From a virus: a stretch of DNA of 64,000 nucleotides. The position numbers and the translations under genes are program-made. Under the pieces are notes generated by a model, which did no database searches, was not told the origin of the DNA, and worked only from the letters and a program-made list of their open reading frames with translations. The stretch lies in the IMG/VR virus record IMGVR_UViG_3300045988_087270, positions 1 through 64,000 of that record; one strand, given 5' to 3'. Positions within the stretch are counted from its first letter, which is position 1, and every line of letters starts with the position of its first letter. Of the stretch, positions 12,214-63,711 are shown piece by piece.

Positions 12214-12294
12214 GTCTAGATAGCCAAGTGGTCAACGGCAGCAAGCTGTTAACTTGCCCCGAAAGGTTCCTAGGTTCGAATCCTAGTCTAGGCG
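12214..12294 (+). tRNA. type-II tRNA (Ser-like body, G73) with anticodon loop cuGUUaa
   Basis: Acceptor gtctaga/tctaggc, T-arm ctagg-ttcgaat-cctag, 3-bp D-stem with 11-nt D-loop, 12-nt variable arm, anticodon stem gcaag/cttgc; positions 34-36 read GUU. Confidence 0.55.
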
Positions 12295-12302
12295 CAATGA
12301 TA

Positions 12303-12365
12303 TATGCCTCTTATTTCTAAGGTTCATTACCTTCTCGAAAAGAAATGTGTACACAAGAGGCGCCT
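12303..12365 (+). other. structured RNA-like element (7-bp closing stem gcctctt/aagaggc, internal hairpins)
   Basis: Nested stems atttct/agaaat, aagg-ttcatta-cctt (T-arm-like) and palindrome gtgtacac, immediately 5' of the next tRNA. Confidence 0.3.
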
Positions 12366-12442
12366 GGAGTATTAAGCCCTGTTGGTAAGGGAACTAGACT
12401 GTCACTCTAGTAAAACTAAGGGTTCGAGTCCCTTATATTCCG
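12366..12442 (+). tRNA. tRNA-Asp(GUC), non-canonical D-arm
   Basis: Acceptor ggagtat/atattcc (one G-U), anticodon stem ctaga/tctag with loop cuGUCac, T-arm aaggg-ttcgagt-ccctt; the D-stem pairs only ccc/ggg. Confidence 0.5.
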
Positions 12443-12587
12443 CAAATAATGGAGAGCACCTAGCGTTTAACTGGGTAGTTGTTAGAGGTAGCGGTGGCAA
12501 TCCACGAGTATGCCTGATAGCTCAATATATTATTAGAATATGGTCACGATAGTTTGCCCGTCTAATGCCATATTTGCCTTTATTTAA

Positions 12588-12659
12588 GCTTCAATAGCAC
12601 AGTGGTAGTGCAGCATTCTTGTAAAATGCAGGTCGTAGGTTCAAATCCTACTTGAAGCT
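12588..12659 (+). tRNA. tRNA-Thr(UGU)
   Basis: Canonical cloverleaf: acceptor gcttcaa/ttgaagc, D-stem gcac/gtgc, anticodon stem gcatt/aatgc with loop cuUGUaa, T-arm gtagg-ttcaaat-cctac. Confidence 0.8.
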
Positions 12660-12668
12660 CTCTAATAT

Positions 12669-12740
12669 CGTGGGTTGTAGCAGTGGTAGCTTGTTTGTCT
12701 CATAAGCAAACGGTCATCGGTTCGAGTCCGATACCCACAA
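12669..12740 (+). tRNA. tRNA-Met or Ile2 (CAU)
   Basis: Acceptor cgtgggt/acccaca (1:72 C-A mismatch), anticodon loop cuCAUaa, T-arm atcgg-ttcgagt-ccgat. Confidence 0.65.
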
Positions 12741-12746
12741 CAAAAT

Positions 12747-12830
12747 TGTCTAGTATGTGAAGTGGTCAAACATGACTGACTGTAAATCAGCTGCTATTTA
12801 GCTTCGGGAGTTCGAATCTCTCCTAGACAA
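12747..12830 (+). tRNA. tRNA-Tyr(GUA), type II
   Basis: Acceptor tgtctag/ctagaca, anticodon loop cuGUAaa, long variable arm gctatttagc, T-arm gggag-ttcgaat-ctctc. Confidence 0.7.
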
Positions 12831-12850
12831 CTAATTAAAAAATAAATAAT

Positions 12851-13327
12851 ATGGAAAAAACTTTTAATTATCAATCTGATGCAAATTTCTATGATAAAAA
12901 GGATTTTATTATAGCTGTTTTAAAAAGAAAAATAAATAGTTTTAAAGAGTATGATGCTAAAAGAAAAAAGCATTATGCTGGACTAGAACAAAAAATTGGA
13001 GAATTAGAATCCTATATAGATGAATTAGAGAACGGACTTAGTATAGAATCTTTAAGTAATAAAATTCAATCTTTAGAAAATGAGATTGAGAAACAGAATC
13101 TTAAAATTAGAGAGTTAAGAGCTAAAGTTAATATATCTTTATTTGATGATACTAAGTCTTTTAGAGAATTAGAATCTATGGCAAATAATTTAAAAGACTT
13201 TAATAGCATGAAATTAGCTATTAAAGATCTTAGAAAACGGCTTAAAGATAACAAAAAAACTATATCTGATTTAATATATGAATTAACACAAGCTAAACTT
13301 AAAATAAAACAATTAACTGGAGAGTAA
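12851..13327 (+). CDS. coiled-coil hypothetical protein
   Basis: 158 aa; heptad-rich LENE/IEKQNLKIRELRAK. Confidence 0.5.
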   Translation: MEKTFNYQSDANFYDKKDFIIAVLKRKINSFKEYDAKRKKHYAGLEQKIGELESYIDELENGLSIESLSNKIQSLENEIEKQNLKIRELRAKVNISLFDDTKSFRELESMANNLKDFNSMKLAIKDLRKRLKDNKKTISDLIYELTQAKLKIKQLTGE

Positions 13328-13337
13328 TCTCCAATTT

Positions 13338-13411
13338 GGGGCGTCGGCTCAAGTGGTCAGCACCTGCTTTGCACGCAGGCATTCTTAGGAGTTCGAATCT
13401 CCTACGCTCCA
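13338..13411 (+). tRNA. tRNA-Ala(UGC)
   Basis: Acceptor ggggcgt/acgctcc with the G3:U70 identity pair, anticodon stem cctgc/gcagg with loop uuUGCac, T-arm aggag-ttcgaat-ctcct. Confidence 0.8.
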
Positions 13412-13431
13412 CTATTAAATTAAATATTTTT

Positions 13432-54141: not shown

Positions 54142-54482
54142 TTTATTTTATTATAGCGGATACTAATTTCGGCTCTCATGTAGAACAAATATCTACTGAT
54201 TTTAATAAATTAAGAGAAAATTTTCCTGATGAGGTAATCTATACTACAGATTATATGAATGTAGATGATACTTTGTATAATATAATAGATTATTCCAATA
54301 TGCCATATAAACCTTATGATGGTACTGAGATAACTAATTGCTACTTATATCGTGATAAATTTTATGAGTGCGATGAAGATTTGCCAGAAGAATTAGATCC
54401 AGATGAATATATGTGTACCTATTATAGAACTTATACAAAAGGTATTCTAACTTCAACATGGCATAAAGATGGCTGGGTATAA
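54138..54482 (+). CDS. hypothetical protein
   Basis: 114 aa. Confidence 0.45.
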   Translation: MIYFIIADTNFGSHVEQISTDFNKLRENFPDEVIYTTDYMNVDDTLYNIIDYSNMPYKPYDGTEITNCYLYRDKFYECDEDLPEELDPDEYMCTYYRTYTKGILTSTWHKDGWV

Positions 54483-55293
54483 TTTAATCACAGACGATAG
54501 TGAAGCATTACAAGCTTATTTAAATAACATTACTCATTCTACTCCACTATCTTTAGAAGAAGAAAAAGAATGTGCTGATACTGGAAATTGGGAGAAATTA
54601 GTAAATGCTAATTTAAAGTTTGTAGTAACTGTAGCTAAAAAGTTTCAGAATAAAGGACTACCTTTATCTGATCTAATAGCTGAAGGAAATGTAGGTCTTA
54701 TTCATGCTAGCCACTTATATAAAAGTGAATATAATGTTAAATTTATAACTTATGCTGTATGGCATATAAATGAAGCTATTCGTAGAGCTATTCATTATAA
54801 AGCAGATACTGTTAGAGTTCCTGTAAGTCAAAAACTTACTTATAACAAAGCTGCTAAAGTTATAAATAAATATTGGCAAACTGAAGATAGACCTCCATCA
54901 GATGAAGAGTTAGAAGAAGCTACTGGTAAAACTATGAAACAAATTAATGGAGCTATAAATGCTAAAAAAATATGTATGTCTTTAGACACTCCATTAGGTA
55001 GTAATGATGATGACGGAGATTCTACTTTAGTAGATATTGTTAAAAATAATAATAGTCCTTTAGCTGACAATGATATAGAACAGTCTTATAAAACAAAAGT
55101 TATAAATAAAGTTTTAAATGGATTATCCAATAAGGAACATGATATAATAATGTTATGTTATGGATTTACTGGTCAGGAATATACTCCTGAGCTTATATCT
55201 CCTTTATTTGGATGTACGCCAGAACGTATAAGACAAATTAGAAAAGAGGCAATTAAAAAATTAAGAAAGAAAAAAATTCTTAAAAATGTTTAA
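54469..55293 (+). CDS. sigma-70 family RNA polymerase sigma factor
   Basis: Region 2 (KFQNKGLPLSDLIAEGNVGLIHA...FITYAVWHINEAIRRAI) and region 4 HTH (ISPLFGCTPERIRQIRKEAIKKLR). Confidence 0.65.
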   Translation: MAGYNLITDDSEALQAYLNNITHSTPLSLEEEKECADTGNWEKLVNANLKFVVTVAKKFQNKGLPLSDLIAEGNVGLIHASHLYKSEYNVKFITYAVWHINEAIRRAIHYKADTVRVPVSQKLTYNKAAKVINKYWQTEDRPPSDEELEEATGKTMKQINGAINAKKICMSLDTPLGSNDDDGDSTLVDIVKNNNSPLADNDIEQSYKTKVINKVLNGLSNKEHDIIMLCYGFTGQEYTPELISPLFGCTPERIRQIRKEAIKKLRKKKILKNV

Positions 55294-56711
55294 ATGATTT
55301 ATTTAGTTACCAAAGCTAAAACTTTATTTAAATCTTCTAAATATGAATGTATTTCCATAGAGAAAAGTAAAGAAATTATTAATTCTATGGGAAAAATTAG
55401 AGGGTTAGATACTGAAACTAGGGGATTAAATCCTCATACTAAAGCATTATTAACTGTTCAGATAGGTACTAAAGAAAATCAAGTAGTAATTGATTGTACT
55501 ACTATAAATATTTTGGAATATAAAAATATATTAGAAGATTCCGATATTTTATACATCTTAGCTAATGCTAAATTTGATACCCAATTCTTCTTTAAACATA
55601 ATATTATATTATCTAAAGTATGGGATGTAATGTTAGCTGAAAAAGTTAGATATTTGGGATATCCTAAAGGTAGTTTTCATGCTGACTTACAGACCCTTGA
55701 ATATAAGTATCTTAATAAACATATGGATAAAACTGTTAGGGGTAAAATTACTAAAGTTGGTCTAATTGAAGAAGTAATAGTTTATGCAGCTAATGATGTA
55801 GTAGATTTGGAAGATTTAATGAATGCTCAAATAAAAGCTTTAGAAAAAGAAGATTTGGTAAAGGCAGTACAATTAGAGAATAGATTTGTTATTCCATTGG
55901 CTTATATGGAATGGTGCGGAGTAAAATTAAACGTAGAAAAATGGAAAGCTAAAATGGTAAAAGATGCTAAACGTTTAAAAATTGCTCTAAATAAATTAAA
56001 TGATTGGGTAATAGAACATTATGGAAATGACTCTAGATTTACTAAGGTAGATTTACAAGGAGATTTATTTTCAGGATTTAATACTGACCCACAGTGTACT
56101 ATAAATTGGAATAGTGGAACTCAAGTAATTCCATTATTTAAAGCTATTGGAATAAATACTTCTACTATAGATAGTAAAACAAAGAAATTAAAAGATTCTG
56201 TAGATGCTAAATTATTAAAGCCTCAAGCTAAGGATTTTGAAATTCTTCCTATTTATCTAGATTATAAGGAAGCTCAAAAAGTATGTTCTACTTATGGACA
56301 AAACTGGTTAGACCAAATAAATCCAGAAACTGGTAGAGTATATACTAAGTTTAATCAGTTAGGTACTAATACTGCTAGAATATCTAGTGGCGGAAAAGAT
56401 AAAAATGCTAAAATAGAATATGTAAATTTTCTCAATCTTCCAGCAGACCCAGAAACTAGAAGTTGTTTTATTGCAGAGAAAGGTAATTCTTGGATTTCAA
56501 TAGACTACTCAGGGCAAGAAAGTTTCATTATGGCTTCTATTTCTAATGATAAAGCTTTAATACATGAATTAATGGAGGGAAGTGGGGATTTACACTCTCT
56601 AACTGCTTATATGAGTTATCCTGATCAAATACCAAGAGATACAAAAATAACAGAAATTAAAGAAAAATATCACCATCTTAGACAAGAAGCTAAAGGCATA
56701 GAATTTGCCAT
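55294..56711 (+). CDS. family A DNA polymerase, exon 1
   Basis: 3'-5' exo motifs (LDTETRGL, YAANDV), pol motif A IDYSGQESF, DLHSLTA, motif B start RQEAKGIEFAI; the ORF stops 2 codons into the intron. Confidence 0.7.
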
Positions 56712-56983
56712 TAATCCTTAAATTATTACAATTTTGTGGCACTCTATGGAAACATAGAGAATAAAAAATTGGGTGAATTGCAGGAACTTAAGGAAAATCT
56801 GCAGCCAAGCCAACCTTTAACAAAGTTGGAAGGTTCAACGACTAACTCTTGAAACTTCGTAAGAAGAATATAATAGAGACACGAGCGCCCAACACCTAAA
56901 CTATAAAGTAAGGTGATGAAATAGTCTAGCCTATATGGTAACATATAGAGCCTTGGATAAAGAGCCAAGGGTTAATACACGCG
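56712..56983 (+). mobile_element. ORF-less group I intron (td/IA2-like) in polA
   Basis: P1: exon gccat pairs with IGS gtggc at 56736-56740. P gaattgcagg, Q aatctgcagccaag, R gttcaacgactaac, S aaatagtctagcc, P9 hairpin ctatatggtaacatatag. Ends in G. Splicing gives AKGIEFAI|NYGGDF. Confidence 0.75.
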
Positions 56984-57452
56984 AAATTATGGTGGTGATT
57001 TTAATACTATTCACCGAAACAAAGGCATCTCTATAGAGGAAGCTAAAAAGATATATGAAAATTATATGTCAGGTTTCTCAGGATTAGCTAAATATCAAGA
57101 ATATTGTAGGAAAATAGTCATGGAAAAAGGCTATATACTTCTAAATCCTATAAGCAAATATAGAGCACATATATATGATTTTGAGTCTCTACGTTCAATG
57201 CAAGAAAAAATGCAAGATAGAGAATTTTGGAAGTATTATAGAGAAATGAAACGAGAATCTCCTAATTGTGATACAGTACAAGAAGTACGAGATTTCTTTA
57301 AGAAAAAAGGTGAGTGTGAAAGGAATAGTATAAATTATAGAATACAGCATACTGGAGCTTTATGTTATAAAGTAAGTATGATTTATTTCTTTAGATGGAT
57401 AGTAGAAAATAATCTTTTTAATAAGGTTTTAATTACTATTACCCCCTACGAT
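56984..57452 (+). CDS. family A DNA polymerase, exon 2
   Basis: Completes motif B (NYGG...EEAKKIYENYMSGFSGLAKY) and continues to ...KVLITITPYD. Confidence 0.65.
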
Positions 57453-58317
57453 AAATAATCTTGTCGTAGTAAAACGATGTTAATTGCTTGGAACTCCTAA
57501 AGATTTAATTACTAAATTATTGAAATAATAAACCAGTAAAAATATTAAATATGATTTTACCTCAGTTAAAAGAAATGGACAATAAGCAGCTTTATAATTT
57601 TACAAGAGAACAAACTCAAGTATTTCTAACAGGACTGCTAGGTGATGGATGTATATCTACTACAAATAGTGGTAGTTATATTTATACTACAAATTGTAAG
57701 CATCTTGAATATTTAGAATTTAAAAAGAAATTATTAGGTAAAGGAAATATTAGACTCCAAGAAAGAAATGGCTATAGTCAAACTCCTATATATACTATGT
57801 ATGGGGGAGCTTACCCAGAATTATTTGAGTTTAAAGAATTTACTGTTCAAGATGTTATTGAAAACTTAGATTTACTTGGGTTAGCATTATGGTTTTACGA
57901 TGATGGTAGCCTTCATAAAAGAGATTTACATTATAATTTAAATACTCAAAAGTTCCCAAAGTATATACAAGAAGGAATTTTTATTCCATGGTTTGATTCC
58001 TTAGGCATTAAAGCTAATTTAAGACATGATACAAAAAGAGGAAAAGAATTGTATTATTTAGGAATTAATAAATATGAAGGAGCTAATATTATTAGTGAAA
58101 TACTATCACGTTATCCATTAGATTGTTACTCTTATAAATTATGGAGTTCAGAGACTATCCTGAAATGGAGTAAGCTGCAAGAGCAGGTGAAAAGCATCGA
58201 TGAAAATCTTACTAATAGGCAATTAGCTTATAAGTGGAGGTTTTTATAAGATATAGTCCGAACCTATATGAAAGTATAGGAGAATATATGGAATCGATAT
58301 ATTCGTAACAATATATG
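57453..58317 (+). mobile_element. group I intron in polA with LAGLIDADG ORF
   Basis: P1: exon acgat pairs with IGS gtcgt at 57464-57468. 3' S box aagatatagtccgaacc and P9 hairpin cctatatgaaagtatagg (GAAA loop). Ends ...tatatG. Splicing gives ...TPYD|EINCEAP.... Confidence 0.65.
57551..58249 (+). CDS. LAGLIDADG homing endonuclease (intron-encoded)
   Basis: LTGLLGDGCIS and LALWFYDDGSL dodecapeptide motifs. Confidence 0.7.
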   Translation: MILPQLKEMDNKQLYNFTREQTQVFLTGLLGDGCISTTNSGSYIYTTNCKHLEYLEFKKKLLGKGNIRLQERNGYSQTPIYTMYGGAYPELFEFKEFTVQDVIENLDLLGLALWFYDDGSLHKRDLHYNLNTQKFPKYIQEGIFIPWFDSLGIKANLRHDTKRGKELYYLGINKYEGANIISEILSRYPLDCYSYKLWSSETILKWSKLQEQVKSIDENLTNRQLAYKWRFL

Positions 58318-58479
58318 GAGATTAATTGCGAAGCACCTATAGAAATAGCTGAAAAAGTAGCTACTAGACTTCACGCTATCATGGTTAGAGCTGGAGAGAT
58401 ATTCTGTACTAGATGTAAGTTAGATGCAGATATTTCTAGATGTAAAGATGGAACACTACCTAATTACTGGATTCATTAA
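58318..58479 (+). CDS. family A DNA polymerase, exon 3 (C-terminus)
   Basis: EINCEAPIEIAEKVATRLHAIMVRAGE...GTLPNYWIH* aligns to the PolI/T7 C-terminal region ending in the conserved His. Confidence 0.6.
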   Translation, partial: EINCEAPIEIAEKVATRLHAIMVRAGEIFCTRCKLDADISRCKDGTLPNYWIH

Positions 58480-62636: not shown

Positions 62637-63711
62637 TAATACAATACAAGCTAGAATAGAAGCAACATTAAAAGAATTATATAAAGTACATGATACTGTA
62701 TTTAAACCAGCAGTTATGTATGCTATGTATAGTAATATACGTGCTTATTTTATAATATTAGATAAGAATAATAAAGCACAACTTTTAAATGCTTTTAATC
62801 CTAGAGTAGTAAAACATAAAGATAAATTAGAATTAGACAATGTAACTGAAAGTCCTCGTATTTATCAAGAATATTTTATAAAAGAATTTTCTGATAATGT
62901 AGATTATGGTATTTATATTGACGAAGATGAAATAGGTCATTATTTTACAGCATATGGAGAAGTTCAAATATTCAGTACTTATATTCAAGTAAATTATAAC
63001 GATTATAAGCAGGCTGAAAAACTTTTAGAATTTGTAAAACCATTACCTGAGGATACTGATAAAATTGTAACTTACGATTTAGTGGTATCTACTAATACAG
63101 GATTTAGTACTACAGAATGTACAAGTTCTAGAAATATTGATATTGATGTAAAAAAGAACTACAATGATGATTTACCTTATGATAAATATAAAGAATTCTG
63201 TGAAAAAGACGGTTCTGGTTTAGCTCTAATGTACGGAATTGCTGGAAGTGGAAAGACGAGCCTCATAAAAAAGCTTATTTATGACTGTTCTGATACTAAT
63301 TTCTATATAATGGATTTTTCTATGTTACAAAATATAGTTTCAGGACAATTTTTATCTTTTCTTTTAGGATTAAAGAATGCTGTAATCATAATGGAAGATT
63401 GTGAGTATATATTAAAACGTAGAGATACTCATGAGAATCCGCTGATTAATTCTCTTTTAAATATTACAGATGGATTAGTTGGTGATGCTTTAAATATACG
63501 ATTTTTATGTACTTTTAACGCAGCATTAACAGATATAGATGAGGCTTTATTAAGACCTGGAAGACTCAAAGTAAAATATGAGTTTAAAGCCTTAAATAAA
63601 GATAAAACTAAAGCTATATGTGGAGATGATAAAGCTGAAACTTTAGCAGAAATTTATAACAGAGATATAATAGATTTCAATAAAAAAGAAAAAAGAAAGA
63701 TTGGTTTTTAA
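62629..63711 (+). CDS. AAA ATPase
   Basis: Walker A GIAGSGKTS, Walker B IIMEDCEYIL, second region of homology ALLRPGRLKVKYEF. Confidence 0.6.
   Translation: MYSNTIQARIEATLKELYKVHDTVFKPAVMYAMYSNIRAYFIILDKNNKAQLLNAFNPRVVKHKDKLELDNVTESPRIYQEYFIKEFSDNVDYGIYIDEDEIGHYFTAYGEVQIFSTYIQVNYNDYKQAEKLLEFVKPLPEDTDKIVTYDLVVSTNTGFSTTECTSSRNIDIDVKKNYNDDLPYDKYKEFCEKDGSGLALMYGIAGSGKTSLIKKLIYDCSDTNFYIMDFSMLQNIVSGQFLSFLLGLKNAVIIMEDCEYILKRRDTHENPLINSLLNITDGLVGDALNIRFLCTFNAALTDIDEALLRPGRLKVKYEFKALNKDKTKAICGDDKAETLAEIYNRDIIDFNKKEKRKIGF

Follow-up and report, generated by a model that had tools for sequence, protein, structure and literature searches.

The 64,000-nucleotide (nt) window analysed here, positions 1 to 64,000 of the IMG/VR virus record IMGVR_UViG_3300045988_087270, contains a DNA polymerase gene, polA, that is split into three exons by two insertions of 272 and 865 nt. 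All coordinates are those of the window and refer to its plus strand. The locus is interpreted, with a probability of about 0.93, as the family-A polA of a crAss-like gut phage that has been invaded by two mobile group I introns, located at the codons of polymerase motifs B and C.

The interrupted polA gene and its relatives

Exon 1 (55294-56711) encodes the 3'-5' exonuclease domain and motif A and runs into motif B, ending with ...AKGIEFA and the AT of an Ile codon. It was delimited from the listing of open reading frames (ORFs), from Pfam matches (DNA_pol_A_exo1, 2.1e-18; DNA_pol_A, 1.8e-26) and from a blastn breakpoint at nt 1418 of the spliced coding sequence (CDS). Its ORF, which opens at 55294 and meets an in-frame stop at 56719-21, covers the polymerase profile to position 217, and the profile is picked up again at 56982-57455 (positions 219-333). 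Exon 2 (56984-57452), based on this second profile match and on collinearity with the polymerases of crAss001 and IAS virus, begins with the A that completes the Ile codon and continues with NYGGDF, the remainder of motif B, the NYRIQHTG motif and motif C up to ...ITPYD. Exon 3 (58318-58479) supplies the motif C Glu, INCEAP...LPNYWIH and the stop codon; it was placed by collinearity with the C-termini of crAss001 and IAS virus polymerases and by a blastn breakpoint at CDS nt 1887/1888.

When 56711 is joined to 56984 and 57452 to 58318, an open frame of 2049 nt results, in which 682 codons precede the stop without interruption. The predicted ligated junctions read TTTGCCAT joined to AAATTATGG across intron 1, and CCCTACGAT joined to GAGATTAAT (also given as CCCCCTACGAT joined to GAGATTAATTG) across intron 2. 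The 682-residue product is a family-A polymerase with exonuclease (PF01612) and polymerase (PF00476) domains and with motifs A, B and C in the form of DYSGQE, RQEAKGIEFAINYG and PYDE. It is 55-57% identical to the uninterrupted crAss001 gp64 and IAS virus PolA and collinear with both, and the alignments run through the two junctions without a gap. The G+C content is 37% in intron 1 and 21-29% in segments of intron 2, against 29% for the window.

The insertions might in principle be inteins or assembly artefacts. LAGLIDADG domains are common in inteins, and an insertion at a further polA site in a related locus (L038) is exactly 303 codons long and in the same frame. This is the least credible reading, with a negligible probability. 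Both window insertions carry a stop in the polA frame within 2-3 codons, by which an intein or artefact reading would already be refuted; Pfam did not find a Hint domain; and the intein reading of the L038 insertion is ruled out by its 49 in-frame stops and a group I S box. Identical insertions, moreover, recur in more than 10 independent contigs, which argues against an artefact.

The polA region is 95% identical to an unannotated human-gut 'Bacteriophage sp.' scaffold, MT835492.1 (locus L001), and its more distant kin are the cr128_1, IAS virus and crAss001 genomes of the Crassvirales family Steigviridae; in the last two, polA is uninterrupted. A scan of viral contigs with a PolA alignment yielded 80 loci. 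MT835492.1 is without precisely the 272 nt and runs continuously through ...KIEFGFNYGGDF... at the first junction. Across the clade of 92-96% DNA identity, blastn alignments of the spliced CDS are interrupted at nt 1418/1419 and 1887/1888 and nowhere else, and two loci are unbroken across both junctions. All four occupancy states are present in this clade: neither intron (L005, L012), intron 1 only (L009), intron 2 only (L001, L006-8, L042) and both introns (the window). The D/E junction (site D) holds an intron even in polymerases of no more than ~50-57% identity and in one of the VHDE type. Precise excision would restore a frame collinear with the uninterrupted homologs, with the splice sites as predicted.

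The original prediction of a double interruption thus proved correct to the nucleotide, in that relatives lack exactly these lengths. Its placement of the motif B cut after FAI, with resumption as NYGGDF at 56984, coincides with the blastn break at CDS 1418/1419, and the polymerase C-terminus was rightly sought beyond the second intron.

A further alternative holds that the insertions are not removed from RNA, so that polA would be a pseudogene or a gene expressed in fragments, and the insertions dead remnants or free-standing endonuclease cassettes. It could draw on the in-frame stop that lies 2-3 codons past each exon preceding an intron, and on the public annotation of cr128_1, which shows a truncated polymerase and two hypothetical proteins. 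It is nevertheless very improbable. The exons are in register, show clear purifying selection, are 92-96% identical to intronless alleles and have kept all catalytic residues. Exon 3, with the motif C Glu, starts 3 nt past the only nearby ATG and alone would encode just 54 amino acids (aa). Both insertions contain complete covarying ribozyme cores with U and G at their bounds, and they are found in many independent assemblies.

The sequence of motif C had raised a doubt about the second junction, where ITPYD/E stood in place of the usual VHDE: either the splice site differed by a few nt or the His was replaced. The latter is the case. A Tyr (window 57446-57452, spliced residue 628) occupies the position of the near-universal His, giving PYDE. 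The uninterrupted polymerases of crAss001 and IAS virus read TPYDEINCEAP, and the Tyr codon is likewise present in alleles of the same lineage that have no intron. The ITPYD/E junction is therefore correct, because the Tyr is exonic and is kept in the intronless alleles, crAss001 and IAS virus. An alternative start of exon 3 that would give HDE is impossible, since the Tyr codon sits in exon 2. Motif C in 82 related loci is of the Y-D type in 48 and of the H-D-E type in 34, and locus L088 carries the same intron family at ...VVHD/EIVLEA with P1 adjusted to match. The His-to-Tyr replacement is a native clade feature of this PolA.

Structure of the two group I introns

Intron 1 (56712-56983) is a 272-nt group I intron that lacks an ORF. 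When the region was scanned alone (~2.1 kb), the Rfam model RF00028 matched over its full length (1-253) at 56718-56948 and scored 91.9 bits (E 9e-24), where the gathering score is 50. Scans of the whole 64-kb window, in gathering and permissive modes, had returned only tRNAs and missed both introns. This miss is attributed to a filter effect, and the use of the whole-window null as evidence of absence is overturned by the 2.1-kb match.

The predicted fold of intron 1 begins with P1, in which the internal guide sequence (IGS) GTGGC (56736-40) pairs with the exon end GCCAT (56707-11), leaving a U·G pair at the splice site. P2 (56742-59, with a GAAA loop) is followed by P3 (56769-75/56886-92), P4 (56779-84/56798-803, formed by the P and Q boxes), a minimal P5, and P6 with P6a (56805-32). 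The R box (56833-44) and the S box (56916-26) form P7. P7.1 (56846-49/56875-78) surrounds a hairpin at 56855-66, and P8 (56893-915), P9 (56931-48, GUAA loop), P9.1 (56951-70) and the terminal G (56983) complete the structure. P10 pairs AAAUU with AAUUU. The P, Q, R and S boxes and the pairing of gtggc with gccat are all present, as the original prediction had stated.

An 18-nt signature of the P7.1 block retrieved 27 viral contigs, all of them group I introns. They share the same P7-P7.1 block and differ in peripheral helices and flanking genes. The core also has blastn links with unannotated segments in Flavobacterium, Clostridium, Staphylococcus, Bacillus and cultured crAss-like phages. Over 12 distinct family members, 95.8% of the cells in the core helices (P3, P4, P6, P6a, P7, P7.1, the inner hairpin and P8) are paired, and compensatory changes occur in 21 of 38 pairs, a count matched by none of 500 shuffles. 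Slid controls reach 31-41% pairing for this intron, and 31-44% over both.

The first insertion had been described as IA2-like. Its group I nature and its length stand, while the IA2 label fits less well. In intron 1, the adjacent P7.1 and P7.2 hairpins joined by a G-U-A link that mark IA2 are absent; instead, the covarying hairpin at 56855-66 is nested inside CUCU (56846-49)/AGAG (56875-78), in the manner of P7.1/P7.1a, and P2 is present. Intron 1 belongs to subgroup IA, and any finer assignment would be tentative, as the nested outer helix is nearly invariant.

A longer form of this intron occupies the same site in four sibling genomes (L010, L011, L049 and L061) as an insertion of 1229/1230 nt (4919-6147 in L010). 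It shares ~95% identity with the window intron over its first 24 and last 254 nt, and the extra ~957 nt lie in the P1 loop, between the 5' splice site and the IGS. They contribute a 339-aa ORF with LAGLIDADG_3/_1 and HTH_23 matches. The last ~45 codons of this protein (VALYGNIENEKLGELQELKENLQPSQPL.KLEGSTTNS, then the stop) coincide with the IGS, P2, P3, P4, P6 and P7, its stop being a UGA in P7.1, and the window intron still has this C-terminal tail in frame. The window intron is the ORF-less form of this LAGLIDADG-bearing intron of ~1.23 kb.

Intron 2 (57453-58317) is an 865-nt group I intron of the IA2 type. Its IGS GTCGTAG (57463-69) pairs with exon CTACGAT (57446-52) to form P1, again with U·G at the splice site; P1 is 97.9% paired over eight lineages, including a shift to GCACGAU/GUUGUGU in L088. 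The P10 strand (57457-62) pairs GAGAUU with AAUCUU and includes two compensatory pairs. P3 (57475-79/58195-99) and P4 (57484-90/57583-89) enclose an extended P5 (57491-57582), and P6 (57590-600/58136-46) holds the body of an ORF in its loop. The 3' part consists of R/P7 (58147-57), P7.1 (58158-69), a GUAA linker, P7.2 (58174-87), P8 (58200-09/58238-47), S/P7' (58248-58), P9 (58263-80, with a GAAA cap), P9.1 (58282-304) and the terminal G (58317). The IGS gtcgt, the S box and the GAAA-capped P9 near the 3' end thus agree with the original prediction, as does the general description of an 865-nt LAGLIDADG intron, in view of the covarying core and of an ORF whose Pfam match exceeds the cut-off.

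Covariation was assessed on trimmed sequences from eight lineages, the window and seven others. Besides the window, lineages with this intron at the same site are L041, cr128_1 (L002) and L031, to which a pattern scan for P9.1 and the tail added L088, L095 and L125. The helices P1, P10, P3, P4, P6, P7, P7.1, P7.2, P8, P9 and P9.1 are paired in 95.2% of cells. Compensatory changes affect 29 of 74 pairs (0/500 shuffles reach this), against 2-8 pairs in slid controls. P3, for instance, appears as CGAUG/CAUCG, CAGUG/CACUG, CUACG/CGUAG and CUAGG/CCUAG, and P5 also covaries, closing with UCC/GGA, UCU/AGA or CCC/GGG. RNAalifold recovered the same helices independently. At 58158-58187 the order UCC-UGAAAU-GGA, GUAA, GCUGC-AAGA-GCAGG gives a P7.1 and a P7.2 that both covary; adjacent P7.1 and P7.2 linked by GUAA, with P2 absent, correspond to the definition of IA2 quoted in PMC3428280 for the polymerase introns of PhiI, W31 and Pf-WMP3, which likewise have no P2.

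For both introns, the existence of close relatives without exactly the 272 or 865 nt, combined with covariation far above the shuffled and slid controls, excludes chance as an explanation.

The ORF of intron 2 (57551-58249) encodes a 232-aa protein of the Pfam LAGLIDADG_2 family (PF03161; E 1.4e-8, 35.3 bits against a cut-off of 25, residues 28-174). Two motifs, FLTGLLGDG (D32) and LALWFYDDG (D118), retain both catalytic Asp residues in the translation, and the protein is predicted to act as a monomer, as a LAGLIDADG endonuclease with two motifs. All 12 window-type copies extracted from site D have kept the ORF intact, and so has cr128_1. A PDB sequence search with the protein gave nothing significant, and tblastn against annotated phages gave matches from the same lineage only.

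The ORF and the ribozyme share ~160 nt. The ATG (57551) lies in the long P5 extension; the codons N-K-Q form the Q box, that is, the 3' strand of P4 (57583-89); and P6 arises from the pairing of the 11 nt that follow with 58136-46. At the other end, the last ~38 codons constitute P6'-P7-P7.1-P7.2-P3'-P8, and the stop TAA (58247-49) overlies the end of P8 and J8/7. The corresponding 38-residue C-terminal tail lies outside the Pfam match and is conserved only because it is the ribozyme. The core evidence for intron 2 is consequently wider than first described: most of the predicted catalytic core falls within the 5' and 3' ends of the ORF, not just in the non-coding flanks. In both intron lineages, the last 38-45 codons of the LAGLIDADG frame coincide with the catalytic core.

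Mobility, proposed mechanism and further intron sites

The introns are present or absent at an identical site in near-identical genomes, and the same site is occupied in divergent hosts, which is the behaviour of mobile introns. Alleles with intron 2 are identical from ~-20 to +10 around the junction. Three alleles without it carry clustered synonymous changes from -9 to +3 (ACC>ACG, CCC>CCT/CCA, TAC>TAT, GAT>GAC, GAG>GAA). Among alleles without intron 1 there are two haplotypes: the first diverges across ~27 nt on the upstream and ~45 nt on the downstream side, and the second matches the intron-bearing type except for two substitutions (nt -4 and -2) in the Ala codon that adjoins the insertion point and base-pairs in P1. 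This flank pattern is as expected from co-conversion together with cleavage-resistant targets.

In the proposed mechanism, each intron would fold into a group I ribozyme after transcription. Its IGS would pair with the last 5-7 nt of the exon to form P1, with the U·G wobble at the cut. An exogenous guanosine would attack the 5' splice site, and the freed 3'-OH of the exon would then attack after the terminal G, while P10 aligns the downstream exon. Ligation would produce the continuous 682-codon mRNA, whereas unspliced RNA would stop 2-3 codons into each intron. In a mixed infection, the intron-2 endonuclease presumably cuts an intronless polA at YD/E (or HD/E), and repair would copy intron 2 into the cut allele, that is, accomplish homing. 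Intron 1, lacking an endonuclease, could spread only by recombination or with an endonuclease acting in trans.

Several points weigh against this interpretation. Intron 2 matches RF00028 only partially, in its 3' part, with 28.5 bits at 58126-58280, below the gathering score of 50. The low score is explained by the ~535 nt of ORF in the P6 loop and ~90 nt in P5, and its assignment to group I is based on comparative structure. A 234-nt, ORF-less intron in L041, whose polymerase is ~50% identical, occupies the same D/E junction with the same 5' and 3' ends and scores 81.1 bits (E 3.3e-21). In intron 1, P5 is minimal and outside the modelled helices, and P7.1 (CUCU/AGAG), like the P7 helices of both introns, is nearly invariant and hence uninformative for covariation. 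The flank haplotypes could also stem from ordinary recombination among strains. Finally, the splicing of both introns, its efficiency and its autonomy are predictions, and ribosomes on the endonuclease ORF (P4', P6, P6'-P8) would compete with ribozyme folding; intron 2 may therefore splice inefficiently or need help.

A related idea is that intron 2, although of group I, has lost the ability to self-splice and needs its own LAGLIDADG protein as a maturase, or a host chaperone. The reasoning is that P5 and P6 have been enlarged by the ORF, which also covers a large part of the core, taking in the distal P5, P4', P6 and P6'-P7-P7.1-P7.2-P3'-P8, with a 38-residue tail that is conserved only as ribozyme. 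LAGLIDADG maturases do occur in bacterial group I introns, for example in Thermotoga 23S (PMC3984707). Every core helix of intron 2 is, however, intact and kept by compensatory change, the ORF-less homolog in L041 has an ordinary compact core, and in Pf-WMP3 an ORF that spans P6a-P7.2 is compatible with self-splicing in vitro (PMC3428280). Dependence on a cofactor is thus considered unlikely.

Two further sites within polA are occupied in relatives. An intron after the Glu of motif A (DYSGQE/S) is found in L061 (4728-5041), L017, L021, L023 and L049, and as a form of ~1.2 kb in L040; in L061, whose polA holds three introns, it scores 40 bits with RF00028, below the gathering score. At the NYP(I)/Q.TG site, insertions of ~0.9-1.0 kb occur in L038 (5268-6176), L066, L072, L074-76, L078-79 and L082. 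An S box of the group I kind and a P9.1 loop, which is GGATAAAGAGCC in L038, are seen in the L038 copy and in others; Rfam gave no match to the L038 copy at E<=0.01. The four polA intron sites are taken here to correspond to approximately E710, L764, Q849 and D882/E883 in E. coli Pol I numbering. Each of them is an active-site motif, a kind of site that homing endonucleases classically target (PMC3984707).

Members of the intron-2 family were also seen in L098/L121, L122 and L124, with the P9.1 loop GGAAUCG and the ...UUCGUAAC tail. Their 3' flanks are unrelated to polA, so this lineage seems to occupy other genes too. In the cr128_1 record, a related intron core (73913-74095) lies in the major capsid gene region, beside an HNH endonuclease gene. 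Beyond the two introns, the window showed no further R, S or P9.1 signatures. A candidate third intron near 63237 was rejected, as its P-box-like AATTGCTGGAA is internal to an unbroken ORF of 360 aa and Rfam, run on this part alone, gave no match.

As to the surroundings of polA, a gene for a 274-aa sigma-70 family protein (54469-55293, plus strand; regions 2, 3 and 4) lies directly upstream, with its stop codon adjoining the ATG of polA. A search of annotated phages showed a close homolog only in MT835492.1, followed by rpoD/rpoS-like genes of ~35% identity, and other genes take the position upstream of polA in crAss001, IAS virus and cr128_1. The window also holds a cluster of six tRNAs at 12214-13412 (Asn-GTT, Asp-GTC, Thr-TGT, Met-CAT, Tyr-GTA, Ala-TGC), none of which is a suppressor tRNA. 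The spliced polA is readable without stop-codon recoding.

Significance and comparison with known phage introns

The understanding of group I introns is not changed by this locus; its value lies in annotation and in the homing series that it opens. In public records of this abundant gut-phage lineage, polA is mis-annotated. For instance, in cr128_1 (L002, MT774392.1; 1686-4832), the annotated polA ends with the stop in intron 2, while 'hypothetical proteins' stand for the endonuclease and for exon 3. As a 64-kb Rfam scan missed a 91.9-bit match, introns in AT-rich phage contigs are likely under-called by routine scans.

The lineage itself represents a natural homing series, with four sites in four catalytic motifs, forms with and without an ORF, and all combinations of occupancy at ~5% divergence. 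It is suited to the study of the homing cycle (gain, endonuclease loss, intron loss and resistant targets) in uncultured human-gut phages, and offers two LAGLIDADG enzymes with long, highly conserved natural targets. In view of the fusion of ORF and ribozyme, translation of the endonuclease and folding of the ribozyme that restores an essential polymerase mRNA would be mutually exclusive on any one transcript. This fusion and the four-site mosaic among strains also invite the speculation that these elements are more than passive parasites and act as a switch for the timing of polymerase expression, or as weapons between co-infecting crAss-like strains, a role that is rather improbable here. 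An intron endonuclease serving as a weapon in phage competition has been shown in PhiPA3 (PMC11620839).

Multi-intron phage polymerase genes, including ones with the motif C site, are already known, and a specialist would find nothing surprising in the present case. Family-A polymerases of phages have long been known to carry group I introns, at E. coli position 674 in SPO1, SP82, Bastille and Pf-WMP3, at 676 in phiL7 and at 881 in PhiI and W31 (PMC3428280). Polymerase genes of the Bastillevirinae contain up to three introns each, and one Nitunavirus polymerase intron encodes a LAGLIDADG_2 protein (PMC11878797). LAGLIDADG proteins are a less usual cargo in phage introns (PMC3984707), and the overlap of an ORF with core helices has been recognised before (PMC3984707, Figure 2b; Pf-WMP3 in PMC3428280).

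In comparison with SPO1, SP82, Bastille, Pf-WMP3 and the Bastillevirinae, the window shares introns in conserved polymerase motifs, of the IA2 type there, ORFs that reach into the core, and two or three introns per gene as a common condition. It differs in its sites, which lie in motif B (~764) and motif C (882/883) instead of the fingers (674/676), and in its LAGLIDADG cargo, as the known endonucleases are mostly HNH nickases. Splicing is experimentally established in those phages and predicted for the window introns. By blastn, both window introns show weak similarity to the DNA polymerase region of Bacillus phages of the Bastille type, Hakuna among them.

Within the same viral order, introns of Delta/Zeta crAss-like phages reside in PolB, the major capsid protein (MCP), primase and ATP_43b (PMC7886860, PMC10136315). 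They also encode LAGLIDADG proteins and likewise interrupt core replication and structural genes, whereas the crAss001-type PolA was not described there as intron-bearing (Yutin et al. 2021, PMC7886860), and a literature search brought up no report of introns in PolA for the crAss001-type group. The approach of Yutin et al. detects introns via endonuclease domains, and would have overlooked introns that, like intron 1, have no ORF.

The closest parallels of intron 2 concern its position and its architecture. By published description rather than by sequence, the introns of PhiI and W31 resemble it in their host gene, a family-A polymerase, in their insertion into motif C (E. coli 881, the His of HDE), and in an IA2 structure with a G-U-A link between P7.1 and P7.2, no P2 and an endonuclease ORF in the P6 region. 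Intron 2 is cut one codon downstream, after the Asp (D/E), carries a LAGLIDADG gene in place of the HNH enzyme I-TslI of the known motif C intron, and resides in a crAss-like phage of Bacteroidota, unlike PhiI and W31. The T4 td intron, an IA2 intron with the ORF of the GIY-YIG endonuclease I-TevI in its P6 loop and with homing in mixed infection, provides the architectural parallel. Both are of subgroup IA2 and both loop an endonuclease ORF out of P6, but the td ORF remains within the loop, while that of intron 2 begins in P5 and ends in J8/7.

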